A DNA stretch of 64,000 bases, taken from positions 9,709 to 73,708 of the forward strand of contig CALLBC010000007.1 of assembly GCA_938001965.1 (NCBI GenBank), written 5' to 3'. The number at the start of each line of letters is the position of its first letter. The first letter of the stretch is position 1. This DNA is from an uncultured Bdellovibrionales bacterium (lineage in GTDB: Bacteria > Bdellovibrionota > Bdellovibrionia > Bdellovibrionales > UBA1609). The notes beneath the pieces were generated by a model. That model had not been told where the DNA came from. It did no database searches and saw only the letters and a program-made list of their open reading frames with translations. Below, piece after piece: positions 1 to 50,758 of the stretch. The position numbers were made by a program, and so were the translations under genes.

Positions 1-602
1 TACATGGATAGAGGACTAACTATTTTTTCGTTTAAATTTAACTCTTTGTTTATACTTCCATAGCGCTTTAAAACTAAGTCCTTAATATAAGGACCATCTA
101 AATTAAACTCTCTGATTTCCTGCATAGTGCCTGGTGACTTATTAAAGGCATTTATAAACCCTTTATATACAAACTCACTACAGTAAATTTTATCGTCAGA
201 CCACTCAAAGTATATATCATAGTTTAAACCCAAATATTTTTTTAAACTCTCTTTTAATAAATTTTGATTTCGCAAATCACTCAAATCAACAAAGTTTTTC
301 TTAACACGTTTTATAGTTACTCTTTCTTCCTTTCCATTTTTAATGAATCGCTTAATAGGGGTTATTTTTACAGGCTGCACAGCCTCATAAACATTCCATT
401 TGCCAGCCTCTTTAAACAATACTCCCACATGAGTAATATGAGACCCAGAACCTTCCTGCAAAGCCTCAGACTGACTACTTAAACTAGATTGAAATATTAA
501 ATCACCACTCTGAGCATGCTGATTAAGATACCTTTCAAAAGAAGAGCCCCAAGCGTTATTAACTATGGTAAAAACTAAAAGTGAAAATAAAAATTTTAAC
601 AT
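1..602 (-). CDS. YiiX/YaeF-family permuted papain-like (peptidase C92-type) secreted enzyme; 3' end lies outside the window
   Basis: Absent from the ORF track because it runs off the left edge. My minus-strand translation from ATG (602-600) is open to base 1. It reads MLKFLFSLLVFTIVNNAWG (signal peptide) ...GDLIFQSS...GSHITHVGVLF...DDKIYCSEFVYKGF. His-then-Cys motif order (HVG ... YCSEFV) is typical of this family. GGAG lies 7 nt upstream (613-610). Confidence 0.75.
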   Translation of the reverse strand, partial: MLKFLFSLLVFTIVNNAWGSSFERYLNQHAQSGDLIFQSSLSSQSEALQEGSGSHITHVGVLFKEAGKWNVYEAVQPVKITPIKRFIKNGKEERVTIKRVKKNFVDLSDLRNQNLLKESLKKYLGLNYDIYFEWSDDKIYCSEFVYKGFINAFNKSPGTMQEIREFNLDGPYIKDLVLKRYGSINKELNLNEKIVSPLSM

Positions 603-1027: not shown

Positions 1028-1414
1028 CTATTCGTTGGCTCCCGAAATTATATCTTCTAACTGCTGCTCGGAAATATTTTCTGGTTTATTTTTTGGATTT
1101 AGATCATAGCGGATTTTATGCACCCAGCGACGCCCCACAAATGCGTTAATTTTTCTTTTTAACTCAAGCTCAATAAATTGTAAGTTCTGCATATGCACTG
1201 GGTGAGCGACCCATAAAGTCAGTAAACCCTGATCATACTGTATGGGAGAGGAGTATTGGCTAATTTGAGGACCCACAAGTTCTGCCCATTGGTTCCAAAC
1301 CTTCCACCTTGTAAACTGTTGAGATAAGGGCGATTTTTGAAAAAAACTTTTCAATACCTCTGAGCTTGTTTCTAACTGCGCCTTTTTCTTGCGCAACTTC
1401 TTTTTGTCTGACAT
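1028..1414 (-). CDS. DUF721 (DciA-like) protein
   Basis: 128-aa ORF. The pattern W..VWNQWAELVGPQI...P..YDQGLLTLWVAHPVHMQNLQF.ELELKRKIN matches the DUF721 pattern (W..ivG..i..h..p..l.dg.L.v.v.s..w..eL) as I recall it. Confidence 0.6.
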   Translation of the reverse strand: MSDKKKLRKKKAQLETSSEVLKSFFQKSPLSQQFTRWKVWNQWAELVGPQISQYSSPIQYDQGLLTLWVAHPVHMQNLQFIELELKRKINAFVGRRWVHKIRYDLNPKNKPENISEQQLEDIISGANE

Positions 1415-1439
1415 AAACTCACTTTAAAGGGATTATAAT

Positions 1440-2750
1440 ATGAAGTCTATATGCGTAGTGGGAGCCGGTTTAGCTGGAAGTGAATGTGCTTATCAATTAG
1501 CTCAATTAGGTCACAAAGTGGACCTCATCGAGATGAGACCAAAAGTAACTACACCTGCACATAAAACCGCATTATTTGCTGAGCTTGTTTGTTCAAATTC
1601 ATTTGGCAGCAAAACAGACTATTCAGCCCCAGGCCAACTTAAGTGGGAGGCTAGAAAACACGGCAGCCTTATTTTACAGGCTGCTGAAGTTGCAACGGTT
1701 CCAGCTGGTATGGCTCTTGGAGTGGATAGAGTTGTTTTCTCTGAGTTTATTACAGATAAAATCCGCAACCACCCCAATATTACAGTTATTGAAAAAGTTG
1801 TTCGCTCATTAGATGAGGTTCCAAGACCCGCAGTTATTGCCACAGGGCCACTAACCCATGATGATCTTTCCCATAGTATGAAAGAACACTTTGATGATGA
1901 CTTTTTATATTTTTATGATGCCATTGCACCAATCATTGATACTGAAAGTATAAATCACGATATCACCTGGAAAGGTGATCGCTGGGGTAAGGGAACTAAT
2001 GACTATATTAATTGCCCATTAAACAAAGAACAGTATTATAACTTAATTGAAGAAATTAAAGCCGCCCGCAAAGTAGAGCCAAAAGAATTTGAAAAAGATG
2101 CTAAATACTTTGAAGGCTGCATGCCCATTGAAGCCATTATTGAGCGCGGTGACCGCACACTAAGGTTTGGCCCAATGTCACCTAAAGGCTTAGATAATCC
2201 TAAAACTGAAAAATGGGAATATGCCATAGTTCAGTTACGCCAAGAAAATAAAGAGGCCACAGCCTATAATATGGTGGGGTTTCAAACTAAAATGGCCTAC
2301 GGCGAACAAAAAAGAATTTTTAGAATGATACCCGGCCTAGAAGATGCTGAATTTTTAAAACTGGGAAGCATTCACAGAAATTTATATATTCACTCTCCTA
2401 AAAAGCTAACTCCACACTTATCAAGTAAAAAAGATCCGCAATTATTTTTTGCAGGCCAAATAACAGGGGTTGAGGGTTATTTTGATTCTACTTGTATTGG
2501 GCTGTTAGTTTCTAGTTTTGTTCACCAACAAGTTAATGGTAATGAAATCAAACTTCCTAATAGATTCACCGCTTTTGGCTCTTTACTTAATGCCATAACT
2601 GAAGACAAAAAACACTTTCAGCCCACTAATATAAACTTCAGTTTATTTCCTGCTATTACCGGAGATGGCCTAAGAGGCCGCAAAGGACGAGAGCAAAGAA
2701 GGGAGCTTCAATTGAAAAATGCTCAAGATAACTTTATACCGCTACACTAA
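1440..2750 (+). CDS. trmFO: Methylenetetrahydrofolate--tRNA-(uracil54-C5)-methyltransferase TrmFO (Gid)
   Basis: 436 aa. N-terminal FAD fold VVGAGLAGSECAYQLA, then ELVCSNSF and QITGVEGY motifs. Length and order are typical of TrmFO. Confidence 0.9.
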   Translation: MKSICVVGAGLAGSECAYQLAQLGHKVDLIEMRPKVTTPAHKTALFAELVCSNSFGSKTDYSAPGQLKWEARKHGSLILQAAEVATVPAGMALGVDRVVFSEFITDKIRNHPNITVIEKVVRSLDEVPRPAVIATGPLTHDDLSHSMKEHFDDDFLYFYDAIAPIIDTESINHDITWKGDRWGKGTNDYINCPLNKEQYYNLIEEIKAARKVEPKEFEKDAKYFEGCMPIEAIIERGDRTLRFGPMSPKGLDNPKTEKWEYAIVQLRQENKEATAYNMVGFQTKMAYGEQKRIFRMIPGLEDAEFLKLGSIHRNLYIHSPKKLTPHLSSKKDPQLFFAGQITGVEGYFDSTCIGLLVSSFVHQQVNGNEIKLPNRFTAFGSLLNAITEDKKHFQPTNINFSLFPAITGDGLRGRKGREQRRELQLKNAQDNFIPLH

Positions 2751-2768
2751 TTACGAGGACATTATACT

Positions 2769-4874
2769 ATGAAAAAATTTATTTATATTTTAATTTTTTT
2801 AACTCTTGGCGGATGCATGAACATCAAAAAAGGAACGAGTAGTACCAACTTAGATAATCTTTTATGGCTTGAAAAAGTTGAAGGAGATAAGGCTATTAAT
2901 TGGGTTAAAGCCCAAAATAAAGTTACGGACCATAAAAATAAAATATCAAAAAATTATAATACTCTAAAAAAGCAGGCTCTAGAAATTTTAGAAGATAAAA
3001 ATAAAATTCCTTACATGAGCATGAGGGGAAACTATGTTTATAATTTTTGGCAAGATAAAAACCATGCAAAAGGTATATGGAGAAGAACTACGCTTAATAG
3101 TTATAAATCAAAAAATCCAAGATGGACTACACTTATTGATGTCGATCTTCTGGCAAAAAAAGAAAATGAAAATTGGGTATTTAAAGAGACCGATTGTTTT
3201 ATAGATGACTATGATAAGTGTTTAATACATTTATCTCGCGGAGGAAAAGACGCAACTGTCATTAGAGAGTTTAACCTCAAAACCAAAAAATTTGTTACAA
3301 ATGGATTTCAACTCCCAGAAGCTAAATCATGGGTCAGTTGGAGAGATAAAGACTCTTTATATGTTGGAACTGATTTTGGCAAAGATACCATGACTAAAAG
3401 TGGGTATCCAAAAATTGTAAAAATTTGGAATAGAAATACTTCATTATCATCAGCTAAAGAGGTTTTTTCTGGCATAAATGACGACATGGGTGTCTATGGC
3501 TACTTCATGAAAGATGGCGACCAATACTTTCACACTATCACTCAATATAAAAATTTCTATGCTTCAAAAAAGTGGAGTATTTCCAAAGATGGATTAAAGT
3601 TAATTCCGCTGCAAGACAGTGCTAAAATTGAAGGGCTGTTTAATGGCTTCCTTATAGTTTCACTAAAGAAAGATTGGACAATTGAAGACACTACTTTTAA
3701 ATCAGGCTCCGCCTTAGCTGTAAAAAGAAAAATCGTTGATAGTGGAAAAGTGACTACAGATGATATTTTAATTTTAAAGGAACCTTCTGCAAAAGAGTCT
3801 ATTCAGTCTATTCGTAAATCAAGAAATAAGTTAATTATTAGTACAATTGATAATGTTCGTGGAAAAATTTATCAAATTGATTATAAGAATAAATTATTTA
3901 CTCAACCAAAATTATTAAATATAAACTCTAGTGGCGATATCAGGCTTTCTGCAACAGACGACAGCACTAATCTAATTACTTTTTATGACGAAGGCTTTTT
4001 ACAACCCAGATCACTAAACTTATATAACCTTGACGCCAATAAGGTTACGCCACTTAAATCTTTAAAAGCAAAGTTTAATATTAATGGAATGACTGTAGAG
4101 CAGCGATGGGCAACCAGTAAAGACGGAACAAAAATTCCTTACTTTATTGTTGGTAAAAAAGAGGTCCTTGCAAAAGGAAATGCCCCCACTGAACTTTATG
4201 GCTATGGTGGATTTAATATCTCTAGTAAGCCGTATTACAATGATGTGCTTGGAAAGCTATGGCTTGAAAAAAATGGCGTTTATGTTTTAGCTAACATTAG
4301 AGGTGGTGGAGAGTTTGGTCCTAGCTGGCATCAATCCGCAATATTAAAAAATAAACATAAATCTTACGAGGATTTTATTTCTGTTGCTGAGCATTTAATT
4401 TCCACAGGTGTAACTAGTAATAGCAGGCTTGCTATCAGTGGAGGAAGCAATGGAGGCCTTTTAGTAGGAGCAGTGATGGTAAAACGACCAGACTTATTTA
4501 ATTCAGTTATATGCCAAGTTCCACTGCTTGATATGTTGAGGTATCATAAACTATTAGCAGGAGCGAGCTGGATGGCTGAATACGGCGACCCAGATAAACC
4601 TGATATGCGTGAATATATTTTAACTTACTCGCCATACCAAAATGTGAAAAAGAATGTTAAATACCCAAATGTGCTTTTTATGACTTCTACAAAAGATGAT
4701 CGTGTCCACCCTGGACATGCTAGAAAAATGGCTGCTCGAATGATGGAACAAGGACACCAAGGAATTAGTTACTATGAAAATACAGAAGGCGGTCATTCAG
4801 CCAGCTCTGACTTAAAACAAAGAGCAAAAATGAAAGCAATAAAATATAACTTCTTACTTGAAAACCTTAAGTAA
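2769..4874 (+). CDS. Prolyl oligopeptidase family (S9A) lipoprotein
   Basis: 701 aa. Lipobox LTLGGC at the N-terminus. Catalytic serine motif GGSNGGLLVGA, downstream DDRV and GGH motifs of the Ser-Asp-His triad. N-terminal beta-propeller-length region. Confidence 0.85.
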   Translation: MKKFIYILIFLTLGGCMNIKKGTSSTNLDNLLWLEKVEGDKAINWVKAQNKVTDHKNKISKNYNTLKKQALEILEDKNKIPYMSMRGNYVYNFWQDKNHAKGIWRRTTLNSYKSKNPRWTTLIDVDLLAKKENENWVFKETDCFIDDYDKCLIHLSRGGKDATVIREFNLKTKKFVTNGFQLPEAKSWVSWRDKDSLYVGTDFGKDTMTKSGYPKIVKIWNRNTSLSSAKEVFSGINDDMGVYGYFMKDGDQYFHTITQYKNFYASKKWSISKDGLKLIPLQDSAKIEGLFNGFLIVSLKKDWTIEDTTFKSGSALAVKRKIVDSGKVTTDDILILKEPSAKESIQSIRKSRNKLIISTIDNVRGKIYQIDYKNKLFTQPKLLNINSSGDIRLSATDDSTNLITFYDEGFLQPRSLNLYNLDANKVTPLKSLKAKFNINGMTVEQRWATSKDGTKIPYFIVGKKEVLAKGNAPTELYGYGGFNISSKPYYNDVLGKLWLEKNGVYVLANIRGGGEFGPSWHQSAILKNKHKSYEDFISVAEHLISTGVTSNSRLAISGGSNGGLLVGAVMVKRPDLFNSVICQVPLLDMLRYHKLLAGASWMAEYGDPDKPDMREYILTYSPYQNVKKNVKYPNVLFMTSTKDDRVHPGHARKMAARMMEQGHQGISYYENTEGGHSASSDLKQRAKMKAIKYNFLLENLK

Positions 4875-4882
4875 CCCTATTA

Positions 4883-4909
4883 GCCCGTATATACTTTGTG
4901 CATACGGAC
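4883..4909. terminator. Possible bidirectional hairpin between convergent genes
   Basis: CCGTAT (4885-4890) pairs with ATACGG (4902-4907) around an 11-nt loop, in the 35-bp gap between the convergent S9A and glmS genes. The stem is short and there is no clear U-run. Confidence 0.35.
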
Positions 4910-6739
4910 TTATTCAACCGTTACTGACTTGGCTAAGTTTCTTGGCTGATCTACATCATGACCCAATGCACTTGCTACATGTAATGATAGCAGCTGCAAC
5001 GGAATAACCGCTAAAAATGGATTAATATTCCATGGAACCTCAGGAATAGATAAGAAGTTAATACTTAAATTTTTTAGTCTCTCATCATTCACAGTACCAA
5101 TGGAAATGACTTGAGCTCCCCTGGCTTTTGCAGTTTCTAGGTTACTAATTGCTTTATCGTACAAATCATCTTTTGGTGCTATCATAACAACAGCCATTTG
5201 TTCATCAATTAGTGCAAGCGGGCCATGCTTCATTTCCCCAGCTGCGTAACCTTCTGCGTGCATATAGGCTAACTCTTTAAGTTTTAAAGCGCCTTCTAAA
5301 GCTATTGGAAAGTTAACTCCTCTTCCAAGGTACAAAAAGCCTTTATAATCTTTTAATCTTTCAGCAGCTTCAGCAAAGAATTTGTCATAAGTTAAAACTG
5401 ACTCCATATGGCTTGGAGTCGCTAGTAATGACTTTACCAAAGCCCTTTCTTCTTCAGGCTTCATATTACCGTTCACTTTAGCAATATACCCTGCAAGTAA
5501 ATTTAAAATTGATAATGAACAAATAAATGCTTTTGTACTGGCAACACCAATTTCTACCCCAGCATTCATATATAGCTGAATATCTGATTCACGATCCATG
5601 CTTGAGTGCTGAACATTACAAAGGGATAAAGTACGAACCCCTTGCTCTTTAGCCAAACGCAAAGCCGCCAGAGTATCCGCTGTTTCCCCACTTTGAGAAA
5701 TTACTATTAATAATGAGTTTTTAACTAGCTTAGGACTTCTGTACCTAAATTCACTGGCAATATCTACCTTACAAGACACACCAGACATTTTTTCAAGTAA
5801 GTACTCACCGACCATGCCTGAGTAAAAGCTTGTCCCGCAAGACACTATATATATTTGCTCTAATGATTTAATATCAGATACGTAACTCTCTAAAGCAGGC
5901 ATCTCAATACTTTGTGTTTCAATATTAATATAAGGCTCTAATGACTTAGCCATACTTCTTGGCTGCTCAAATATTTCTTTTAACATATAGTAAGGATAAC
6001 CTGACTTTTCAACTTGCTCGGCAGACCAACTAATTTCCTCTATTTTTTTATCTATAGGCTTTAGATCATTAGAATAAAATTTATAACTATCTTTCTGAAT
6101 ATGTACTACTTCATTTTCCGACAAGTAGGCGATGTTTTTAGTGTATGGAACAATAGCTAACATATCACTTGCAACAATAAATGATTTTTCAGCAAAACCC
6201 ACTAATAATGGGGGGCCGTTAGTAAAAGCCACCATTTCATCAGGGTGCCTTTCAGATAAAACTAAAACTGCATAAGCCCCCTGTAATCTTGGAATAACTT
6301 CTTTAACAGCAGTTAACAAATCATTAGTTTGCTTTACTTTAATATTGATTAAGTGGGCTATTAGCTCTGTGTCAGTGTCTGAATAAATTTCTGAACCACC
6401 AGCGATCAATTCATCACGTAGCTCTGCATAGTTTTCAATAATTCCATTATGCACCACACTCACTCCACCAATCATATGAGGATGAGCGTTTTTTTCAGTG
6501 GCAGGACCGTGTGTCGCCCAGCGCGTATGACCAATTCCTAAATTACCTCTAATAGGTTCTTCATTAAGCTTTTTTTCTAGGTTAACTAGTTTTCCACGGG
6601 CTCTAGATCTATTTATAAATTCACCATTATGAATAGCAACTCCTGCGCTATCATAACCTCTATACTCTAGAGTTTTTAATCCCTTAACAATTACTTCTTG
6701 AGCGTCTTCTCTGCCCAAGCATCCAACAATTCCACACAT
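4910..6739 (-). CDS. glmS: Glutamine--fructose-6-phosphate aminotransferase (isomerising)
   Basis: 609 aa. Starts MCGIVG (N-terminal nucleophile Cys), has two SIS-domain regions and ends ...NLAKSVTVE, the canonical GlmS C-terminus. Confidence 0.95.
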   Translation of the reverse strand: MCGIVGCLGREDAQEVIVKGLKTLEYRGYDSAGVAIHNGEFINRSRARGKLVNLEKKLNEEPIRGNLGIGHTRWATHGPATEKNAHPHMIGGVSVVHNGIIENYAELRDELIAGGSEIYSDTDTELIAHLINIKVKQTNDLLTAVKEVIPRLQGAYAVLVLSERHPDEMVAFTNGPPLLVGFAEKSFIVASDMLAIVPYTKNIAYLSENEVVHIQKDSYKFYSNDLKPIDKKIEEISWSAEQVEKSGYPYYMLKEIFEQPRSMAKSLEPYINIETQSIEMPALESYVSDIKSLEQIYIVSCGTSFYSGMVGEYLLEKMSGVSCKVDIASEFRYRSPKLVKNSLLIVISQSGETADTLAALRLAKEQGVRTLSLCNVQHSSMDRESDIQLYMNAGVEIGVASTKAFICSLSILNLLAGYIAKVNGNMKPEEERALVKSLLATPSHMESVLTYDKFFAEAAERLKDYKGFLYLGRGVNFPIALEGALKLKELAYMHAEGYAAGEMKHGPLALIDEQMAVVMIAPKDDLYDKAISNLETAKARGAQVISIGTVNDERLKNLSINFLSIPEVPWNINPFLAVIPLQLLSLHVASALGHDVDQPRNLAKSVTVE

Positions 6740-32737: not shown

Positions 32738-33406
32738 ATGAATTTCAGCGACACACTTAAAAATCATATCAGCGACAAACACTTACTTAATCACCCCTTC
32801 TACCAAGCTTGGATGGAAGGAAAGTTATCTATGGACACTTTAAAAGAATATGCCGGCCAGTACTATCATCATGTTTCGGCTTTCCCGAGATACATTAGTG
32901 CTACCCACTCAAACTGTACCGATGCTAGTAAGCGAGAAATTTTACTTGAAAACTTGAATGAGGAAGAAGGTTTAAATAATACGTCTCATCCCCAGCTTTG
33001 GTTGGATTTTGCAGAAGGGCTTGGCCTCAAGGAAGGTGAAGTTAAAATAGCAAAGGAGAAAACTGCTATACAAAATGTAATTAAAACTTTCCTTGGTTAT
33101 GGAAAAAAATCTTATGCTGAGGGCTTAGCAGCTCTGTACGCTTATGAGTATCAAGTTCCAGAAGTGGCGAGCTCTAAAATTGAAGGTCTTGAAAAAAATT
33201 ATTCGATTAACGATGATAAAACACTTAAATTTTTTAGAGTTCATCAAGAGGCTGATATTTACCACCGTGAAGCTTGCGAAAAGTTAATTAATCAATTTTC
33301 ACCTGAAGAACAAAAACAGGCTTTAAAATCTGCCAGGGATGCAAGCTCTGCCCTATGGGACTTCTTATCAAGCCTACCAATTGAGAGCACTACTCATGCT
33401 GCCTAG
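32738..33406 (+). CDS. CADD/CT610-like heme-oxygenase-like diiron protein (TENA/PqqC fold); candidate non-canonical p-aminobenzoate synthase
   Basis: 222 aa. HPFYQAWMEGKLS..L..YA.QYYHHV.AFPRY, E-x6-H (EGLNNTSH), AALYAYEYQVP, H-x3-D-x2-H (HQEADIYH). This is the same ligand layout and block order I recall for chlamydial CADD. Located directly upstream of folB-folKP. Confidence 0.75.
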   Translation: MNFSDTLKNHISDKHLLNHPFYQAWMEGKLSMDTLKEYAGQYYHHVSAFPRYISATHSNCTDASKREILLENLNEEEGLNNTSHPQLWLDFAEGLGLKEGEVKIAKEKTAIQNVIKTFLGYGKKSYAEGLAALYAYEYQVPEVASSKIEGLEKNYSINDDKTLKFFRVHQEADIYHREACEKLINQFSPEEQKQALKSARDASSALWDFLSSLPIESTTHAA

Positions 33407-33419
33407 TAATTATTCCTCA

Positions 33420-33764
33420 ATGCATGTAAAGGATTACTCTGTGTACGTACACCTTGGTTGTAGTAAAGAAGAACGTACTCACAAACAAGAAGTACGCTTT
33501 AACATTGATCTTAGCTTCCCTGAAAATCCTCCCGGAGAAGTAACAGATCAGCTTAGCGACACTGTATGCTATTTTGAAATTTGTGAAATAATCAAAAAAC
33601 ATGTTGCTGAAAGAGAGTTTCAACTTATTGAAACTCTCTCTTATAACTGTTTAAAATTAATTAAAGAGAGATATCCGCAGCCCAACATTTCAGTGAGTTG
33701 TCACAAAGTAACCCCTCCTGTTGAAAATCTAAAAGGTGGAGTTGAGTATGTTTGTAGAGGATAA
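33420..33764 (+). CDS. folB: Dihydroneopterin aldolase family protein (FolB/FolX)
   Basis: The ORF track opens at 33339 but that overlaps the previous gene. In-frame ATGs at 33396 or 33420 give a ~115-aa protein (MHVKDYSVYVHLGCSKEERTHKQEVRFNIDLSF...TVCY..I...) of typical FolB size and pattern. The exact start is uncertain. Confidence 0.7.
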   Translation: MHVKDYSVYVHLGCSKEERTHKQEVRFNIDLSFPENPPGEVTDQLSDTVCYFEICEIIKKHVAEREFQLIETLSYNCLKLIKERYPQPNISVSCHKVTPPVENLKGGVEYVCRG

Positions 33765-34995
33765 AAAGAAATACCTCTCACTTGGGTCAAATTTAGGTGA
33801 TCGTTTTAAAAATATTGAAGGAGCATTAAATAAACTTAACGCCATTTGCGAAATAAAAAGAATTTCACCTCTATACGAAACCAAAGCTCTACTTTCAGAT
33901 ACCCCCAATGAAAATGACGATTTATTTTTTTTAAATCTAGTCATAGAAATTGATACTAACAAAAGCCCCGAAGACTTCTTAGCCCATACTAAAAAAATTG
34001 AACAATCATTTAATAATAATAAAATTCAACAGTGGTCCCCTCGATATATTGATATAGATATACTAACTTGGGATAATATATCTATAAAATCAAAAGACTT
34101 AACAATACCCCATCCAGAAATTCTCAAAAGATCATTTGTCTTAGACCCCTTAAAAGATCTTGATGCTAGATGGTTACAGCCTGCTCGAAAATTAAAAAAG
34201 AGAAACGCCACAATAATGAAAATTTACAACATCACTCCTGATTCCTTTTCTGGAGGTCTTGATTATAAGAATATGGATGAATTTAAGAGTATACTTTTAA
34301 ATGAATTTAATAATGGTGTTTCCTATTTTGACTTTGGTGCAGAGTCTACTCGACCAAACGCCACATATGTAGACGAATATAAAGAGTGGGAGCGTTTACA
34401 CCCCTATATCAATATTTTTAATAATGTCTTTAAAAATAAAATTTTAAGACCTAAACTTTCCATTGATACCTACAAAGCATCTATTGCCAAAAAGTCTCTT
34501 CAAATGGGAGCTGACTTAATTAATGATGTTAGTGGTTTAGCTGACCCACAGATGATAAATGTTATTAAAGATTCCAATTGTCAGTATATTCTTATGCATA
34601 GCCTTGGAGCTCCGGCCCAAAAAGAAAATATAATTTGTGGCGACCCTGTCACAACTCTATGTCAATGGCTTGAGAGTAAATTAGAACTATTTTTAAAAAA
34701 TAATATTCCGCTAAAAAACATAATCTTTGATCCTGGAATTGGGTTTGGGAAAAACACACAACAATCCGCCTTACTTATCAGACATATTGACCAATTTAAA
34801 AAATACCCAGTCAGGTTACTTGTTGGGCACTCAAGGAAGTCCTTCCTAACCCCGATAATTCATGACTCCTATAAGCAGCGTGACCTCGAAACCATTGGCG
34901 TATCACTAAAACTACTAAGTAAAGGGGTCGATATTTTACGCGTTCACAATACCCAAGACCATTTAAAAGTTCTTAAAGGATGGATGTATGCTTAA
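33736..34995 (+). CDS. folKP: Bifunctional HPPK (FolK) / dihydropteroate synthase (FolP)
   Basis: 419 aa. The N-terminus has HPPK motifs (YLSLGSNLGDR, PRYIDIDIL, IPHP). The C-terminus has DHPS motifs (NITPDSFSGG, DFGAESTRP, SIDT, INDVSG, DPGIGFGK). Confidence 0.9.
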   Translation: MELSMFVEDKKKYLSLGSNLGDRFKNIEGALNKLNAICEIKRISPLYETKALLSDTPNENDDLFFLNLVIEIDTNKSPEDFLAHTKKIEQSFNNNKIQQWSPRYIDIDILTWDNISIKSKDLTIPHPEILKRSFVLDPLKDLDARWLQPARKLKKRNATIMKIYNITPDSFSGGLDYKNMDEFKSILLNEFNNGVSYFDFGAESTRPNATYVDEYKEWERLHPYINIFNNVFKNKILRPKLSIDTYKASIAKKSLQMGADLINDVSGLADPQMINVIKDSNCQYILMHSLGAPAQKENIICGDPVTTLCQWLESKLELFLKNNIPLKNIIFDPGIGFGKNTQQSALLIRHIDQFKKYPVRLLVGHSRKSFLTPIIHDSYKQRDLETIGVSLKLLSKGVDILRVHNTQDHLKVLKGWMYA

Positions 34996-44180: not shown

Positions 44181-45128
44181 ATGTCTTTGCTAAAAAAAGT
44201 TCCTGAACTGAGTCTTGATCAGTACACCGACGGTAATACAAATGATCGTCAGCAATTTATTGATGATTTATTCACTGGCCTAAAATATTTTGGCTTTATC
44301 ATTATTAAAGATCACCCTATCCCAGTTCCTCTTTTAGATAAAGCTTATAATTTTTGTGAACAGTTTTTTACGCAAGATGAAACAACAAAAAATAAATATA
44401 TTTGCACTGAAGGTGGAGGCCAAAGAGGCTACACACCTTTTGGAACTGAGCACGCTAAAGGGAATAACTTTCCAGATTTAAAAGAATTTTGGCATGTTGG
44501 TCAATTCCTAGAAGAGGGCCATGAGTATTATAAACAATATCCAAAAAATATTTGGCCCACTGAACTTCCTGAATTCAAAAGCACATTCACGGATATTTAT
44601 AAGTCATTAGAAGATGTTGGCAAGACTTTACTTTCTGCCCTTGGACATTCTTTAGAAGTTGAAAGTGATTATTTCAAAAATATGGTTGATGATGGTAATT
44701 CCATTTTAAGATTACTTCATTACCCGCCTATTCCTGAAGGAGCTGACCCAAACTGTGTTCGAGCTGCTGCTCATGAAGACATTAACTTAATTACTATTTT
44801 AGTTAGTGCCACAACTTCTGGCCTTGAGCTGCTTGATCGTGACGGAACCTGGCTACCAGTGGAAACAGATAAAAATAACTTAATTGTGGACGCAGGTGAT
44901 ATGTTATCTAGAATAACCAATGAGGTTATACCATCCACTACTCACAGAGTAGTAAACCCTAAAGGTGAAAATAAAACACGATATTCAATGCCATTTTTTA
45001 TGCACCCACACCCAAAAGCTATGCTTTCATGTATCGAGTCTTGCAAGCAAGATAAAGTGAAGTATCCCGATATTTTATCTCATGACTTTTTAATGAAACG
45101 CCTTAAAGAAATTGGCCTAACTAAGTAA
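44181..45128 (+). CDS. 2-oxoglutarate/Fe(II)-dependent oxygenase (isopenicillin-N-synthase-like family)
   Basis: 315 aa. HxD facial-triad motif (AAHEDINLITIL), distal His (PSTTHRV) and RYSMPFF (2OG-binding Arg-x-Ser). Confidence 0.8.
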   Translation: MSLLKKVPELSLDQYTDGNTNDRQQFIDDLFTGLKYFGFIIIKDHPIPVPLLDKAYNFCEQFFTQDETTKNKYICTEGGGQRGYTPFGTEHAKGNNFPDLKEFWHVGQFLEEGHEYYKQYPKNIWPTELPEFKSTFTDIYKSLEDVGKTLLSALGHSLEVESDYFKNMVDDGNSILRLLHYPPIPEGADPNCVRAAAHEDINLITILVSATTSGLELLDRDGTWLPVETDKNNLIVDAGDMLSRITNEVIPSTTHRVVNPKGENKTRYSMPFFMHPHPKAMLSCIESCKQDKVKYPDILSHDFLMKRLKEIGLTK

Positions 45129-45286: not shown

Positions 45287-46840
45287 ATGAACATACAGCA
45301 GCAGCTTTCAACTCAATTTAAATTAAAAGAATTTCGTTACGGCCAAAAAGAAATTATTGAATCTTTAATGAAGAAACAAGATGTTTTAGCCATAATGCCC
45401 ACTGGTGGTGGAAAGTCTTTATGTTATCAACTTCCAGCATTTGCGCAGCCAGGCCTAACCATTGTTGTCTCTCCCCTTATTGCCTTGATGAATGATCAAG
45501 TTCGACACTTAAAAAAATTAAATCTTAATGCCAATTGCATTCACTCAGGCATTGAGGACGATGTTAAAAAAGAAATCTTTGCCCATATGGCTGCCGCCTT
45601 AAGTAATAATGAAAGTTATATACTGTTTGTTTCTCCTGAGCGTGTGCAAAAACCCGGCTTTTCAGTTTGGCTAAAAAAACAAAAAGTAAACTACTTCGCA
45701 GTGGATGAGGCTCATTGTGTATCTAAGTGGGGGCATGACTTCAGAACTGAGTACACTCAAATTTCATTACTTAGAGAAATTTTTCCAGATGTGCCTATGA
45801 TTGCACTCACTGCAACAGCAACACCTATTGTAAAAAATGACATCAAGCAAAACCTCACTTTAAGAAAACCCGATGAACATGTTTATGGCTTCTATCGCCC
45901 CAACCTATATTACCAAGTTGAATTTTGTGACATTGAATCTGACAAAGATCAATTTGTACAAGGGGCAATTAAACAGTTTCCTGAAGGAAGAGTATTAATT
46001 TACTGTGGCACACGGAAAAAAACAGAAAGCTGGTATCAATTCCTATCCGTAGAAAATTCTAAGGTGGGATTTTATCATGCTGGCCTCAGCGCAAAGGAGC
46101 GTCATGATATAGAGGCCAAATACGCTAGTGGAGAAATTCGGATCCTCGCTGCAACAAACGCCTTTGGTATGGGAATTGACCACCCTGATATTAGATTAGT
46201 CATGCATACACAAATTCCAGGGAATATAGAATCATATTATCAAGAAGTGGGACGTGCTGGAAGAGACGGCAAAGACTCTACATGCCTAATGCTATATTCT
46301 AAAAAAGATAAAGGCCTGCAATCATTCTTTATTACTCAGTCTAAAGCTCCAAAAGAAATTAAAGACAAACGATGGCGTGCACTAGATGCCATGGTTAACT
46401 TCGCCGAAGGTGGTGAATGTCGTCACTCTGATATTTTAATATATTTTAATGATAAAGATCGTATTAAAAAATGTGGGCATTGTGATAGCTGTGACTTAAA
46501 GTCACCAAGACGAGTACTTCCAGTAAAAGTACCTTTTGCGATCAAAACCCCTGAAAAGAAACCAACAAAAAAATCAAAATATGACAAATTATTTGCTACC
46601 GAAGTCCCTGCTGATAAGCAATGGCTGATCCAGGTTCTTAAAGATTGGCGTAGAGACTACGCAGAAGAAGAAGGGATTCCTGCCTTCATGGTATTTAGTG
46701 ATAAGTCATTGCGTGACTTAATTGTTAAAAATCCAACTGATGAAACTGAGCTTGAGTCTGTTTATGGTTTCGGGGAAAAAAAGATTGAAACTATTGGACA
46801 TTTAATTCTAGATGTTTTGAGTAATGCAAAAGAAGGCTAA
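45287..46840 (+). CDS. recQ: RecQ-family ATP-dependent DNA helicase (short form with Zn-binding and HRDC-like C-terminus)
   Basis: 517 aa. Walker A PTGGGKSLCYQ, DEAH box VDEAHCVSKWGHDFR, TATAT, AFGMGID, QE.GRAGRDG, Cys cluster C..H....CGHCDSC. Confidence 0.88.
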   Translation: MNIQQQLSTQFKLKEFRYGQKEIIESLMKKQDVLAIMPTGGGKSLCYQLPAFAQPGLTIVVSPLIALMNDQVRHLKKLNLNANCIHSGIEDDVKKEIFAHMAAALSNNESYILFVSPERVQKPGFSVWLKKQKVNYFAVDEAHCVSKWGHDFRTEYTQISLLREIFPDVPMIALTATATPIVKNDIKQNLTLRKPDEHVYGFYRPNLYYQVEFCDIESDKDQFVQGAIKQFPEGRVLIYCGTRKKTESWYQFLSVENSKVGFYHAGLSAKERHDIEAKYASGEIRILAATNAFGMGIDHPDIRLVMHTQIPGNIESYYQEVGRAGRDGKDSTCLMLYSKKDKGLQSFFITQSKAPKEIKDKRWRALDAMVNFAEGGECRHSDILIYFNDKDRIKKCGHCDSCDLKSPRRVLPVKVPFAIKTPEKKPTKKSKYDKLFATEVPADKQWLIQVLKDWRRDYAEEEGIPAFMVFSDKSLRDLIVKNPTDETELESVYGFGEKKIETIGHLILDVLSNAKEG

Positions 46841-47124
46841 GCCTTCTTTTTTATATCCATTTCGCTATAAATAGCTTCTATACTATATTTAATCATTAAA
46901 TCAGCGATTATTTTTGGTTTGATTTTATATAATTCTGCAATTTTTTTAAGTTTTTTCAAAGGAGGCGCACACAAGCCACGCTCATAATTAGAAATAAACT
47001 GAGGGCTACTATAGCCTAATTTATCTGAAACGTCTTTTTGACTTAAACCAGCTTTAATTCTTTTTTCATATAGAAACTTACCAATTTCCGCATGCATTTC
47101 TTTTTTCTTTTTAACTGAAAACAT
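46837..47124 (-). CDS. XRE-family helix-turn-helix transcriptional regulator
   Basis: 95 aa. HTH_3 pattern (IKAGLSQKDVSDKLGYSSPQFISNYERG). GGAGGG RBS. 4-bp convergent overlap with recQ. Divergent from the 47522 cassette. Confidence 0.8.
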   Translation of the reverse strand: MFSVKKKKEMHAEIGKFLYEKRIKAGLSQKDVSDKLGYSSPQFISNYERGLCAPPLKKLKKIAELYKIKPKIIADLMIKYSIEAIYSEMDIKKKA

Positions 47125-47450
47125 TCAGCCCTCCAAATTAACCAACTTTTTGGCACCATCTTAAGTTTACTATATAAAAACAAGTAACTAATTATTTCTA
47201 CATACTTATAATCTGGTTAATAAAGTTATTTTTTTTACCCAAACTAAATAAAAATTATATATGAAATAGCTTATAATTACTATTTACTAGTTTACAATAA
47301 CAGCTAAATACATATTTCTAAAGATAAATTCACAAATAGATCAATATCTTTGCATTAAATACACATTGTTTTGTAAATAAATTAAATTTAACTAATTATA
47401 CATACTAACTGTCTCAATAAGACTCAAAGTAATAAATTTTATAAAATTAT

Positions 47451-47477
47451 TAAACTATATTTATTTAATGCCGATTA
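47451..47477 (+). promoter_or_regulatory. Sigma-28 (FliA)-type promoter candidate upstream of the HDO cassette
   Basis: TAAA (47451-47454), N15, then GCCGATTA (47470-47477), a 7/8 match to the GCCGATAA -10 box. It has the same TTAAA-N15-(A/G)CCGATTA variant as the flagellin promoter at 36613. The GC-rich -10 box stands out in a very AT-rich 376-bp spacer. Confidence 0.6.
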
Positions 47478-47521
47478 GTTACAATAATTACTATTAATCC
47501 GTGCAAATCATAAGAGATATT

Positions 47522-48238
47522 ATGTTAAACCTTAAGTTAATTATAATTGATGACGCTATTCACCTGCGTGAACAGAGTCAAATTTGTGAACTCTGGAGGA
47601 AGTGCCTTTGGGCAAAAGTTGAAAGCTATGAAAATCATTATAAACACTCAATTTTAACGGTGGGAACTGATGATTTTATTGGATCTCATTTAATTTTAGC
47701 CAATAAACTTCCAGGTGGCAAACTTGATCCTGTCATGATGTACAAAGCTGTTAGGCTATCAAAGTACAAACAGTTTAGCCTGCCTTTCGGACTAAACAAA
47801 ACGCTCAAGGGAACACACCTTGAAAACTCAATAATTCTGAATAAAATTTTGAAATCTGGTGATGAGGTTTCCTATAATTCATCTTTTACAGTTAACCCTA
47901 AATATCAAAATCACCCTGCCAGATCTTCATTTAAAGATTATATTTCTATTTTACTTTATCATTATAATATTGTTTTTAATGTTAAACAGTGGGTTTCAAT
48001 TGCAGCTATAAAGTATAAAGTTGATAAATACTTTTTATCCCTGGGAGCCAAACCTATTCATGATGCATTCTCTGTTAAAGCTTCGGACATGGAGCCCGTA
48101 CAGCTATTTCACCACTCTGACACCAATATAGTTCCTGACCATATTTTAAAAACCGTAAAAAAATATAAACATATTAGTGATTCATTAAAGATTTATCACA
48201 GTAATGATGAAGATATAAAATATAAAATAGTCGCTTAG
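47522..48238 (+). CDS. Hypothetical protein; possible GNAT/LuxI-like-fold N-acyltransferase (weak)
   Basis: The ORF track opens at GTG 47501. ATG 47522 has an AAGAGA SD-like box and fits the predicted promoter better. The fold guess rests only on loose resemblance of the C-terminal half (..EVSYNSSFTV...WVSIAAIKYKVDKYFLSLGAKPI..) to acyl-HSL / N-acyl amino acid synthase cores. Confidence 0.35.
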   Translation: MLNLKLIIIDDAIHLREQSQICELWRKCLWAKVESYENHYKHSILTVGTDDFIGSHLILANKLPGGKLDPVMMYKAVRLSKYKQFSLPFGLNKTLKGTHLENSIILNKILKSGDEVSYNSSFTVNPKYQNHPARSSFKDYISILLYHYNIVFNVKQWVSIAAIKYKVDKYFLSLGAKPIHDAFSVKASDMEPVQLFHHSDTNIVPDHILKTVKKYKHISDSLKIYHSNDEDIKYKIVA

Positions 48239-48260
48239 CTAAACATACAGGGAGAATATT

Positions 48261-48908
48261 ATGAATTTCAAACAATTTAAAGAGTTATACGATCAAAATT
48301 TAAATAATGTTGCTAATGAATGCAAAGCATTTCCATGGGATAACAAATATGCATATTCAACTTGGCTAGCCAACACACATTACTACGCCAAAGAAACTCC
48401 GAGGATGCTATCCCTATCTGCTAGCGTAATGCCCGAAAAAAATAGAGCCGTTTGCTATAGGTTTATTAGACATGCCTGCGAAGAGATGGGACATGAAAAA
48501 CAAATTGAAAGAGATTTAAAATTTCTAGGGTATAAACTCAATGACCTTCCTATTACAAATGAAATGAAAATGTGTCATCGCTCACTAAGTTATTGGGGAC
48601 AATTATCTGAAAATGCCATTGGCTTTATGGGTTGGGTTGTTTTAGTTGAAGGGTTAGCTGTAGAGGCTGGCGAACATGTATATAATCAGATAATAAAGCA
48701 TTACTCACCAAAAGCAGCCAACTTCTTGAAAAGCCACTCTGATGAGGATCCTGACCATATCAACAAAGCTTTTATGGTACTTAAACAACTAGATGTTGTT
48801 GACTTGGAGGTTATTGCAGACTCAATTAATATGTACAGTCACCAGTATATTTCGTTCCTGAATTCTGCCAAATCTAAAATACAGGCCATTAGCAAAGAAG
48901 CATCTTAA
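48261..48908 (+). CDS. Heme-oxygenase-like diiron oxidase/oxygenase (HDO; 'iron-containing redox enzyme' family)
   Basis: 215 aa, helical. Candidate ligand motifs in canonical order: E-x2-H (CEEMGHE), Glu-rich core helix (LVEGLAVEAGEH), H-x3-D-x2-H (HSDEDPDH). The last spacing is also seen in the CADD-like protein at 32738. Confidence 0.65.
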   Translation: MNFKQFKELYDQNLNNVANECKAFPWDNKYAYSTWLANTHYYAKETPRMLSLSASVMPEKNRAVCYRFIRHACEEMGHEKQIERDLKFLGYKLNDLPITNEMKMCHRSLSYWGQLSENAIGFMGWVVLVEGLAVEAGEHVYNQIIKHYSPKAANFLKSHSDEDPDHINKAFMVLKQLDVVDLEVIADSINMYSHQYISFLNSAKSKIQAISKEAS

Positions 48909-48989
48909 AAAATATTACAATTTTATTCACAATAAAGTTATTTTAAGATAACCTGCCTCGGTAAACTACTTATATTTATTGAGGTTTTT

Positions 48990-49697
48990 ATGGAAGTAAC
49001 AAATATCACAAGTAACGATAGATCCCTATCTGACAACTTTAAGGTGATTGTATCTAAAATCACAGCCATTTTAAAACAACACGATATAACTGTAAAACCC
49101 TTTCACTCAGATTCGCTGCCAGCATTTAATAAGTTAAGTCCAGAAGATCAAATGCAAGCTATTCAACACGCACAAAATTACTTAGAGGTACTAAATTCTG
49201 TTAATGATGCAAAGTGGTCATATAAAGATGATTTACACTTCTTGTGGCGATCCCTTAAAGTTCTTAAGTTGACTCCAAGTTCTGATATTTTTGAACATAT
49301 TAAAAAAAATGATGCTGTTGAGATATTTAACCTAAACAACATACAAGTTTGGCGTAACCTAGCTAGTTTAGATCTACTATCTTACACATTAGAGGAAATT
49401 TATTGTTACTCTTGGGAAGACCGTTATATTAGAAACGAGCAGACTCTTGCCGAAATTAAAGTGGTTTTTGAAAAAATGTTCGCATTGAAACCTCCTGCCA
49501 CATACCAGTGTAATGTTCAAAATATTATTACAGAAGTGTTTAGCGAAGAAAAATTAACTATTAACGCTAACCATAAAGCTATTTGTTTACTGTTTGATTC
49601 CAATAGCAACCCAAGTGGCTACCTTGTTGTTTCTGACGCAAAAATATTACGTAAAAATAGCCTATTTGAAAAGCCACACAGGTTACATAGTGTTTAA
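48990..49697 (+). CDS. Hypothetical protein (possibly PAS-like fold), last gene of the cassette
   Basis: 235 aa, no signal peptide or TM helix, GAGG RBS. No catalytic or DNA-binding motif recognised. Confidence 0.5.
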   Translation: MEVTNITSNDRSLSDNFKVIVSKITAILKQHDITVKPFHSDSLPAFNKLSPEDQMQAIQHAQNYLEVLNSVNDAKWSYKDDLHFLWRSLKVLKLTPSSDIFEHIKKNDAVEIFNLNNIQVWRNLASLDLLSYTLEEIYCYSWEDRYIRNEQTLAEIKVVFEKMFALKPPATYQCNVQNIITEVFSEEKLTINANHKAICLLFDSNSNPSGYLVVSDAKILRKNSLFEKPHRLHSV

Positions 49698-50270
49698 TCA
49701 ATTGTGAGCTGCATAGGTTACCACACTAAATCCTTTCGCCTTCTTAGTTAAACTCTCATTTTCATAGGCATGTGGCTCATCACCTGGGAAAGCTAATAAG
49801 TCTCCTTTAGTTAGTTCATATTTGCTCTTATCTACGTAAATATTGATCTTTCCTTCTAAACAATAAAAGTATTCTTTTGTTTGTGAAATATGAGGGGTCC
49901 CTTTAAACCGACCGTTCGGCTTTAGAGTTAATAGATCTATCTCCATTCCAGGTATTGGATCAGGCAGTATTTTTTTTACTTCTGTATGAACTTTAGTTCT
50001 ATCTAATGTGGGTATATCTACCGCCTTAATATGCCTTACCTTAAGTTGCGGACGACTAATCAACTCACCAATTGATATTTGTAGTGCTCCAGTAATCTTC
50101 ATTAGGTTTGATAGCGAGGGGTTGCCGGACCCAGACTCAATATAAGTAAGTGTCGATCTTGGAATTAATGCCTTCTTAGCTAATTGCAACTGACTTAAGC
50201 CTTGCTTTTTTCTAATGGCTATAACGTTGAGGGCTAAATTCTGCCTAGTTTGCTCTAATAATTTATCCAT
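49698..50270 (-). CDS. XRE-family HTH regulator with C-terminal cupin sensor domain
   Basis: 190 aa. N-terminal HTH_3 (IRKKQGLSQLQLAKKALIPRSTLTYIESG..NPSL.NL.KI). C-terminal cupin (G..H.....EYFYCLEG......D......GD...FPGDEPHAYEN). Abuts the 48990 gene stop with zero gap. Confidence 0.8.
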   Translation of the reverse strand: MDKLLEQTRQNLALNVIAIRKKQGLSQLQLAKKALIPRSTLTYIESGSGNPSLSNLMKITGALQISIGELISRPQLKVRHIKAVDIPTLDRTKVHTEVKKILPDPIPGMEIDLLTLKPNGRFKGTPHISQTKEYFYCLEGKINIYVDKSKYELTKGDLLAFPGDEPHAYENESLTKKAKGFSVVTYAAHN

Positions 50271-50356
50271 ATGCCAATATATTAGCGTAAATGTTTAATT
50301 ATCGTCAAACTTCGACGATCATTTAAACAGATAAACAACACAAAAAAGGACAGAAA

Positions 50357-50758
50357 ATGAAATCTAAAATTACTTTTGATCACTTAAATCTAACTGTTGA
50401 TAACTTTCAAAATTCTAAAGATTGGTACGAGAAAATATTTAACTTTAAAATTGTGGAATCAGGTACTGAGCCCGATGGTCGAGAATGGGGAATATTAAAA
50501 AATGGAGACCAAATGTTGGCTTTATATGAATACCCAAACAGACAACAGTATGAAGGAGATAAATATCACACACTAAACCACTTCTCATTCAGAATTAGAA
50601 ACAGAAAGGAGTGGGAACAAATAATGAAGAAACACAAACTAAAGACTTACTACATGAGTCCATTTGTTTATCCAAATTCATTATCTTGGTACATCAGGGA
50701 TCCTAGCGGATATAAGATCGAGATCAGTCTTTGGAATAATAATAAAGTAACATTTTAA
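50357..50758 (+). CDS. VOC-family (glyoxalase/bleomycin-resistance/dioxygenase fold) protein
   Basis: 133 aa. FDHLNLTVDNF..S..WY..IF.F begins the protein, then HFSFRI and Y.RDPSGYKIEIS, a typical VOC beta-alpha-beta-beta-beta pair. Confidence 0.75.
   Translation: MKSKITFDHLNLTVDNFQNSKDWYEKIFNFKIVESGTEPDGREWGILKNGDQMLALYEYPNRQQYEGDKYHTLNHFSFRIRNRKEWEQIMKKHKLKTYYMSPFVYPNSLSWYIRDPSGYKIEISLWNNNKVTF

Follow-up and report, generated by a model that had tools for sequence, protein, structure and literature searches.

Genes A, B and C beside an XRE regulator in Bdellovibrionota: a conserved module around a heme-oxygenase-like oxidase and a candidate small-molecule pathway

Which function might be served by three co-directional genes, one of them coding for a predicted diiron oxidase of the heme-oxygenase-like type (HDO), in the genome of an uncultured Bdellovibrionales bacterium? 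The genes, here called A, B and C, lie in a 64,000-nucleotide stretch of contig CALLBC010000007.1 that was analysed as a whole and is referred to as the window. A preliminary description, prepared from the letters of the window, had proposed a dedicated metabolite or signal pathway under ligand-sensing regulators. The analysis presented here indicates that A, B, C and a small, divergently transcribed XRE regulator (46837-49697) almost certainly constitute a real conserved module. This module may represent a regulator-linked small-molecule pathway, possibly a synthase/receptor circuit. Its parts, with protein lengths in amino acids (aa), are the following.

46837-47124, minus strand: XRE regulator, 95 aa, Pfam HTH_3, divergent from the operon
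47125-47521, no strand: AT-rich control region from which the XRE gene and gene A diverge
47522-48238, plus strand: gene A, 238 aa, unannotated family, candidate LuxI/GNAT-like acyltransferase (synthase)
48261-48908, plus strand: gene B, 215 aa, heme-oxygenase-like oxidase, PF14518 above the gathering score
48990-49697, plus strand: gene C, 235 aa, second unannotated family, candidate sensor or co-regulator

The list of open reading frames (ORFs) of the window reproduced, base for base, the coordinates, spacers and gene set of the preliminary description. These include the 22-nt spacer between A and B (48239-48260), the 81-nt spacer between B and C (48909-48989), the 376-bp AT-rich stretch ahead of A, an XRE-cupin gene that abuts C with zero gap, and the ligand motifs of B. 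The GC content is 20.5% in the AT-rich stretch (47125-47500), 33.3% in the cassette and 34.6% in the whole window. An alternative in-frame GTG start of gene A at 47501 would give a protein of 245 aa.

A, or a variant in its position designated A', occurs together with B and C in 14 independent loci that differ in their flanks and gene orders. Homologues of the module proteins on other contigs share 23-59% identity. Because such homologues are conserved and the trio recurs in 14 loci, the cassette genes are more than chance ORFs. The order A>B>C is found in the window and in the loci labelled L002, L003, L004 and L009, and A>B is convergent with C in L010, L012, L014, L022, L025 and L032. A>B is divergent from C in L011, the XRE gene is inserted between B and C in L013, and A' is divergent from B in L023. 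In every one of the 14 loci, A or A' immediately adjoins B. Co-occurrence that is preserved through rearrangement to this degree provides strong evidence of a functional link.

That the three genes co-occur in other genomes holds with A, B or C as bait. With B, the only close homologue (59% identity) is encoded on a 1.4-kb contig from the Joint Genome Institute (JGI), between a partial A (49% identity over 150 aa) and a partial C. With A, the closest relatives (P0005, P0009 and P0015) each reside in an A-B-C operon, and the flanks are all different: glnA/gcvH and spoVR; an alcohol dehydrogenase and a two-component system; and fadA/fadB and an RDD protein. With C, six loci were obtained from species-representative genomes and ten from JGI metagenomes, and local hidden Markov model (HMM) searches placed B beside C in all of them but one 1.4-kb fragment and L015.

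A translated plasmid search (tblastn) with B identified the 161-kb plasmid pBdHM1 of a cultured strain, Bdellovibrio sp. HM001. The corresponding plasmid search with an A-family member gave no match. The pBdHM1 locus (L032; AP029175.1, 153295-160999) comprises a divergent XRE gene, A', B and a convergent C, and all four genes are annotated as 'hypothetical protein'. On the plasmid record, the genes occupy 158.6-160.9 kb. Positions below are those within the locus.

84-425, minus strand: XRE regulator
539/707-1201, plus strand: A'
1211-1837, plus strand: B
1818-2393/2513, minus strand: C

The A' gene of pBdHM1 is apparently longer than annotated: from the start on record it codes for 164 aa, and the ORF reaches 220 aa.

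All six genome records and the plasmid derive from Bdellovibrionota, namely Bdellovibrio, Bacteriovorax, Pseudobacteriovorax and unclassified Bdellovibrionales. Correspondingly, C was detected in six of 185,579 species-representative genomes, all six of them Bdellovibrionota, and the module appears confined to this phylum as far as sampled. Full-text literature searches returned no description of an XRE-A-B-C module.

Protein B is a predicted HDO-family protein and, as such, an uncharacterised new member of a known superfamily. It matches PF14518 (Haem_oxygenas_2, 'iron-containing redox enzyme') with 33.5 bits (cut-off 28.9; E 4.6e-8), and precomputed PF14518 matches are also recorded for B homologues. 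The ligand motifs E75-x2-H78, E130 and H159-x3-D163-x2-H166 are present in the sequence. Residues H71, E74, E75, H78, E130, H159, D163 and H166 are invariant in 10 homologues of 29-59% identity. Of three findings that the preliminary description had named as speaking against it, two were looked for, a B of the TenA/PqqC type lacking the ligands and a failure of the three genes to co-occur, and neither was found. A ligand-less TenA/PqqC-type B is ruled out because the six diiron ligands are complete and invariant in the 10 homologues. The assignment of B as an HDO-type protein was thus strengthened, and binding of a dimetal cofactor is highly probable.

As a single sequence, B matches the PDB entry 3dde at E 2e-4, and a profile built from the 10 homologues finds the same entry as nearest structure at E 5.6e-17. 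3dde is an uncharacterised Shewanella protein, which its depositors labelled TENA/THI-4, heme oxygenase-like fold, domain of unknown function. By its sequence homology to 3dde, B may have a heme-oxygenase-like helical fold. The profile also matched 4wwj at E 0.44; this entry was deposited as a 'TENA/THI-4 family protein', and we take it to be UndA. A further match was the mangotoxin acetylenase MboA (9ypi; E 0.02). In the MboA alignment, H78 and E130 of B fall on chain residues 114 and 168, which a 25-residue tag offset converts to His89 and Glu143, both Fe ligands of MboA (PMC13185094). The substrate carboxylate is bound on Fe1 in MboA, AetD, UndA, HrmI and PolF (PMC13185094).

When compared with the HDOs UndA, BesC, SznF, MboA, AetD and CADD, B passes PF14518 and has the E-x2-H / E / H-x3-D-x2-H arrangement. 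It differs from the characterised members in being merely 215 aa long and close to none of them, as its matches to enzymes of known function lie at E 0.02 or worse. In SznF, a Glu of helix 1 serves as a seventh metal ligand. A conserved helix-1 Glu is absent from the B family, in which position 45 is E, N, Q or H.

The fold family of B includes TenA, PqqC and CADD, and the B profile gave weak matches to the TenA homologues 1rtw (E 0.0054) and 3oql (E 0.21). On these grounds, B might be a TenA/PqqC/CADD-like enzyme of cofactor metabolism, and the module might serve housekeeping, salvage or detoxification with A and C as accessory proteins. This is very unlikely given the full, invariant metal-ligand set, which is unlike TenA, and the patchy distribution of a module that can be plasmid-borne and whose protein C was found in so few species-representative genomes. 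Moreover, no cofactor genes are linked to it, and a separate HDO/TenA-type gene within a folate operon of the window already fits the CADD role. That second heme-oxygenase-like gene (32738-33406, plus strand; PF14518 5.7e-27, TENA_THI-4 1.3e-23) sits directly upstream of folB and a folK-folP fusion (33339-33764 and 33736-34995), with a divergent LysR regulator adjacent. Its arrangement fits that expected for a CADD-type para-aminobenzoate synthase in a folate operon.

A relative of B from Photobacterium sp. DA100 (L033; NZ_CP119424.1, 249844-258377) gives an indication of the substrate class. There, the HDO domain forms the C-terminal part of a 799-aa protein in which it is fused to an AMP-binding (acyl-adenylating) enzyme, an acyl-AMP ligase. 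The domain matches the B profile at E 4e-26 and retains EEKGH, LEG and H-S-x2-D-x2-H. The fusion has as its neighbours a T_hemolysin-family protein (PF12261) on one side and a short-chain dehydrogenase (SDR) on the other (ORFs at 1529-2131, 2195-4594 and 4607-5425 of the locus), and it ends in two alanines (-AA). The PLSDB gene table shows zero annotated features for this stretch, its coverage being incomplete at 3 features for the whole 2.1-Mb record. This setting suggests that the HDO clade of B works on acyl or carboxylate substrates. The Photobacterium cluster shares with the module an HDO of the same clade beside a small acyltransferase-like protein, and the -AA ending. It differs in being gammaproteobacterial, in having neither C nor XRE, and in that its T_hemolysin protein is not detectably related to A (hhalign P 0.14-0.21).

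Protein A has zero matches in Pfam (E<=1), NCBIfam, the PDB, PADLOC and PHROGs. In a word-index search of 5.8 billion proteins, A and C retrieved only themselves, and B retrieved one relative of 59% identity. In a full HMMER search of 1.84 billion cluster representatives, 281 sequences matched A at E<=1e-3, of which 60 also pass E<=1e-10; their lengths are about 235-265 aa. None of 76 aligned members matched a Pfam family at E<=0.01. Residues K32, Y36, D51, H56, F89, G175 and W219 are near-invariant in the family. The variant A' takes the position of A in L012, L013, L014, L022, L023, L025 and L032. A comparison by hhalign shows it to be a homologue of A (probability 74%, E 2.7e-5, 168 columns), and its layout looks more plainly GNAT-like.

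A possible relationship between A and the LuxI synthases was assessed with a LuxI-family alignment made from PDB sequences (LasI 1ro5, TofI 3p2f, BjaI 5w8a and RpaI 6wn0). The A profile aligned with the LuxI profile at a score of 27.6 (P 0.0017, 138 columns). For a profile of A and A' together, the score was higher, at 31.7 (P 3.5e-4, 157 columns), and A' alone gave 15.7, not above the controls. The 200 column-shuffled LuxI profiles, a lenient null for this comparison, scored 12.3 +/- 2.4 and at most 20.0, and all of them stayed below the real score. The reversed LuxI profile scored 16.3, A scored 9-20 against four unrelated profiles, and LuxI scored 12-18 against four unrelated profiles. The aligned blocks pair F-P, S-S-W-T and the C-terminal G of A with F-P-E-L, L-S-R-F-A and the C-terminal region of LuxI. 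The near-invariant residues of A occupy places roughly analogous to those of the conserved LuxI residues, and the residues themselves are different.

These comparisons are suggestive of a remote LuxI/GNAT relationship, and whether A is an acyltransferase stands at about an even chance. Of the resemblance to GNAT-fold acyl-homoserine-lactone synthases that the preliminary description had seen in A, what survives is a weak profile-profile signal above controls; every direct family test failed. Like the LuxI synthases (PF00765), A is of similar length and has its conserved blocks in a similar order: an acidic D-D-F block, a beta-strand, Y-K, F-P, S-S-W-T and a C-terminal G. It is also paired in the genome with a dedicated transcription factor, as LuxI is with LuxR. 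Unlike them, A lacks a PF00765 match, its partner regulators are XRE-type and not LuxR-type, and in the subfamily found here an HDO is an obligate neighbour.

N-acyl amino acid synthases of the PF13444 type, such as FeeM of the environmental DNA (eDNA) fee cluster, belong to the small GNAT-like enzymes, and their products, N-acyl amino acids, are then modified by neighbouring oxidative enzymes. The same chemistry is proposed here for A and B. They differ from A in that neither A nor its 76 relatives match any GNAT family in Pfam.

The wider A family keeps company, as far as its gene neighbourhoods suggest, with ligand-type transcription factors, as signal synthases do. Seven distant A-family loci were sampled (P0012, P0014, P0021, P0024, P0044, P0073 and P0100), and neither B nor C is present in any of them. 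In six of the seven, one to three adjacent genes encode members of a single family of XRE-HTH proteins of about 250-320 aa. In these regulators, an XRE HTH occupies the N-terminus and the motif C-x-[HY]-x-G-[DS]-x2-C lies in the C-terminal part, and two or three paralogue types can be distinguished. Their C-terminal part gave a weak V4R match (E 0.036-0.039, under the Pfam cut-off). No Pfam family was found above cut-off for the sensor part, and a profile search of the PDB gave matches to the HTH only. An A-family gene and such regulators together span the following positions.

L006, 612-4459: distant A gene with regulator
L027, 3266-4693: distant A gene with regulator
L028, 5948-7818: distant A gene with regulator
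L030, 1068-3918: distant A gene with regulator
L031, 4751-6489: distant A gene with regulator

The arrangement looks like that of synthase/receptor pairs. L006 and L031 also have in common a class-I methyltransferase (3.8e-50) and an alpha/beta hydrolase. The RRNPP receptors PlcR, Rgg and ComR of Gram-positive quorum sensing offer a parallel, in that these signal receptors bind DNA through an XRE HTH at the N-terminus, and PlcR, ComR and Rgg-type structures are among the HTH-only PDB matches of the regulator profile. RRNPP receptors have tetratricopeptide repeat domains and peptide ligands, which is not so here; the HTH protein is either 95 aa long with a separate C, or fused to an unrelated Cys-motif domain.

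The third protein, C, bears no recognisable motif, as the preliminary description had stated. It has no match in Pfam, NCBIfam, the PDB, PADLOC or PHROGs. Four members of its family matched no Pfam family at E<=10, and profiles of 4 and 10 sequences matched no PDB structure, PAS included. The family, gathered from neighbouring genes and collection scans, comprises 10 sequences of 23-40% identity. Residues E111, Q119, R122, Y132, T133, C139, W142, Y146, R148 and E182 are invariant. C was also compared with A, and the score of 19.7 falls inside the control range, which gives no support for a relationship between the two. L022 has two tandem C-family paralogues (216 and 246 aa; 716-1366 and 1439-2179) after its XRE gene.

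The 95-aa XRE protein is, by its recurrence beside the other genes, the fourth conserved member of the module. It matches HTH_3 at E 7.4e-13 (48.8 bits; cut-off 23). Ten other loci have an XRE orthologue next to C or A' (phmmer 1e-14 to 1e-25), and these orthologues share the signature LGY-x-[ST]-x-QF[IV]SNWERG-x3-PP. Altogether, 11 of 16 loci have XRE next to the module. In L010, L014 and L015, the gene runs in the same direction as C and is 10-110 nt away from it, and it is also co-directional in L022 and L023. In L015 (Bdellovibrio sp. BIN15, JAGIAF010000141.1), XRE and C form a pair at 5564-6651, and neither A nor B is present in the 6 kb upstream and the 1.1 kb downstream of the pair. L015 could be a receptor-only ('solo') arrangement, or its enzymes could lie elsewhere in the genome.

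The control region between XRE and A (47125-47521) presumably holds both promoters and the operators. Three short sequences occur twice each within 47168-47498, namely ATAATTACTATT (47273 and 47484), TAACTAATTAT (47185 and 47389) and TAGTT(T)ACAATAA (47288 and 47476). These repeats could be candidate operators or chance occurrences at 20% GC. Sites of the TAGTTACAATAATTACTATT type are likewise repeated within 47125-47521. A promoter scan of the AT-rich region returned 27 promoter-like sites against 19.7 +/- 4.2 expected, which is uninformative at such AT content, and a terminator scan was similarly uninformative in AT-rich DNA.

The genes immediately outside the module are the following.

45287-46840, plus strand: recQ, convergent with the XRE gene
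49698-50270, minus strand: XRE-cupin gene, 190 aa, Pfam HTH_3 and Cupin_2
50357-50758, plus strand: VOC gene, 133 aa, Pfam Glyoxalase/VOC

The stop codons of recQ and the XRE gene share 4 nt (46837-46840), leaving no terminator space between these convergent genes. The XRE-cupin gene is convergent to C and begins one base past its end. The preliminary description had the cassette bracketed by two regulators, a picture that the comparison did not bear out: the 95-aa XRE is the only one conserved, and the XRE-cupin protein is without a counterpart at the other loci scanned. A cupin domain was sought in the window and L001-L015 and occurs in the window only, and the XRE-cupin protein did not match any of nine module XREs. 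No VOC gene was seen beside other modules, though no direct search was made for VOC. The XRE-cupin and VOC genes, which are divergent and 86 bp apart, probably make up a regulator/enzyme pair of their own that happens to border the cassette. An NCBIfam scan of the cassette proteins added nothing specific beyond Pfam. Upstream of recQ lies a stand-alone 2-oxoglutarate-Fe(II) oxygenase gene (44181-45128, plus strand; DIOX_N and 2OG-FeII_Oxy), for which no NCBIfam match and no obvious partner genes were found.

Small XRE proteins are typical antitoxins or controller proteins, and the position of the module varies among genomes, with a plasmid location in HM001. The module might accordingly be taken for a toxin-antitoxin system, an anti-phage defence system or mobile-element cargo, with XRE as the antitoxin or control protein. 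PADLOC and PHROGs did give weak matches, which are confined to the HTH domains of the two regulators; A, B and C match neither collection. In addition, an O2-activating diiron enzyme and the methyltransferase and desaturase described below are not parts of defence or toxin-antitoxin systems, and the module of the window lies between recQ and valS with no integrase or repeats there. Taken together, these points make this explanation highly improbable.

Further enzymes accompany the module in some relatives. The L014 module carries an O-methyltransferase of the natural-product type (PF00891 and a dimerisation domain), and that of L022 includes a membrane protein of the FA_desaturase family (PF00487), whose gene lies between C and B. 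Tailoring enzymes inside the module are as expected if the product is a small, partly lipid-like metabolite. Together with the link between the A family and XRE regulators, they lend further support to the dedicated metabolite pathway that the preliminary description had put forward for the locus.

The enzymes of the module also tend to share a C-terminal ending. Of 145 full-length A-family representatives, 92 end in AA and 14 more in VA, and 117 end in A; K-K-A-A and K-I-A-A are typical endings. Both the L014 O-methyltransferase and the L022 desaturase end in -AA, as do A' (NIAA) and B (RLAA) of pBdHM1. Among the loci examined for this feature, each ORF of at least 150 aa with an AA ending codes for A, A' or B, or for the desaturase of L022 or the O-methyltransferase of L014, and C, XRE and the neighbouring genes never ended in AA. 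The set with -AA tails was drawn from A-family members P0005-P0153 and from B, A' and accessory enzymes in L002-L004, L010, L012, L014, L022, L023, L032 and L033. Proteins tagged by ssrA and the 'C-motif 1' substrates of ClpX end in LAA-like sequences. As the -AA tails resemble these endings, we infer a shared ClpX-type degron, which would make the enzymes short-lived.

From these observations, a scheme with two units can be proposed. In the first unit, A would acylate an amine or amino-acid substrate, and B would oxidise the product of A, or an amino-acid or fatty-acid precursor, possibly by decarboxylation, desaturation or N-oxygenation. The product would be a small acyl or amino-acid-derived metabolite, which in some lineages may be tailored further by the O-methyltransferase or the membrane fatty-acid-desaturase-type enzyme. 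The second unit would consist of C and the 95-aa repressor-type XRE, usually side by side, which may sense the product or control its synthesis at the AT-rich divergent region. The -AA tail would keep the enzymes short-lived, such that output tracks transcription closely. The scheme starts from what was observed, namely real and conserved genes, their co-occurrence, the HDO ligand set of B and the orthology of XRE; the acyltransferase activity of A, the order of steps, the product, the role of C and tail-driven degradation are inferred. That the module performs small-molecule biosynthesis is probable. The fuller reading, with A and B as the makers of a small acyl or amino-acid-derived metabolite and C and XRE as its controllers or sensors, falls a little short of an even chance, and the identification of the product as a signal sensed by C and XRE is put forward tentatively.

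Several results count against this scheme. Concerning A, the 76 family members searched against Pfam up to E 10 gave scattered one-member matches and no GNAT or LuxI (PF00765). Neither the A sequence nor the A-family profile matched the PDB, LuxI structures included, and a profile of A' retrieved nothing above noise there. The hhalign probability of the A-LuxI alignment is just 15% for the A profile and 37% for A merged with A'. The LuxI residues R23, W33, E42, D44, D47, R67, E98, S100 and R101 (LuxI alignment numbering) are not retained in A. Concerning C, no relative of known function is detectable. Its likeness to a PAS domain (A-E-Y..Q-V-W-R-N..Y-T-L-E-E) was seen by eye only, and the Pfam and PDB searches gave no PAS match. 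C as a detached sensor domain of the ~300-aa regulators was rejected (hhalign P 0.23). AlphaFold single-sequence models of A and C were unusable, with predicted local distance difference test (pLDDT) scores of 32.5 and 45.7, respectively. Furthermore, three loci with full flanks (L003, L009 and L011) have no XRE nearby, and the window proteins A (KIVA) and B (KEAS) do not end in AA.

The same co-occurrence and tailoring-enzyme evidence applies equally to a lineage-specific secondary-metabolite cluster with a non-signal product, such as an antibiotic, a metallophore or a prey-directed effector. A, B and C would then all be biosynthetic, or C would be an immunity or carrier protein, and XRE would be an ordinary pathway-specific repressor. 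Known HDOs work mostly in natural-product pathways, A, B and C form one co-directional operon in five loci, and the invariant polar residues of C (Cys139, Glu111, Arg122, Arg148 and Glu182) are enzyme-like. C pairs more tightly with XRE (L010, L014 and L015) than with A and B, however, and in L015 the two occur without A or B. The wider A family is tied to regulators, and not to further enzymes, in six of seven loci, and no conserved transporter, nonribosomal peptide synthetase or polyketide synthase is found nearby. On this evidence, a secondary-metabolite cluster, the leading alternative to the two-unit scheme, appears somewhat unlikely.

The two-unit scheme extends, in its boldest form, to the whole A family: its members, at least 281 clusters, would be unrecognised autoinducer-type synthases, remote relatives of LuxI, that work with XRE-type receptors. 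We regard this as rather unlikely at present. If it were true, the receptor would be the fused HTH-sensor protein of ~300 aa or, as in the window, the split pair of C and the 95-aa XRE. The signal of the window would be built or tailored by a diiron HDO, with degron-tagged, short-lived enzymes. To our knowledge, predatory Bdellovibrionota have no AHL-type (acyl-homoserine-lactone) system, and the circuit would amount to a private chemical language for these predators, on which solo pairs like that of L015 could listen in.

Bdellovibrio-like predators are studied as living antibiotics, and almost nothing is known of the small molecules that they make or sense. The module described here unites an O2-activating enzyme class of unusual chemistry with two unannotated families under a dedicated regulator. 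Its presence on pBdHM1 in a cultured carrier, Bdellovibrio sp. HM001, makes the product and its role directly testable. If the A family proves to be a new synthase class with XRE-type receptors, the module would define a new bacterial signalling circuit and give two new families to annotate; the conservative outcome would still be a new HDO reaction.

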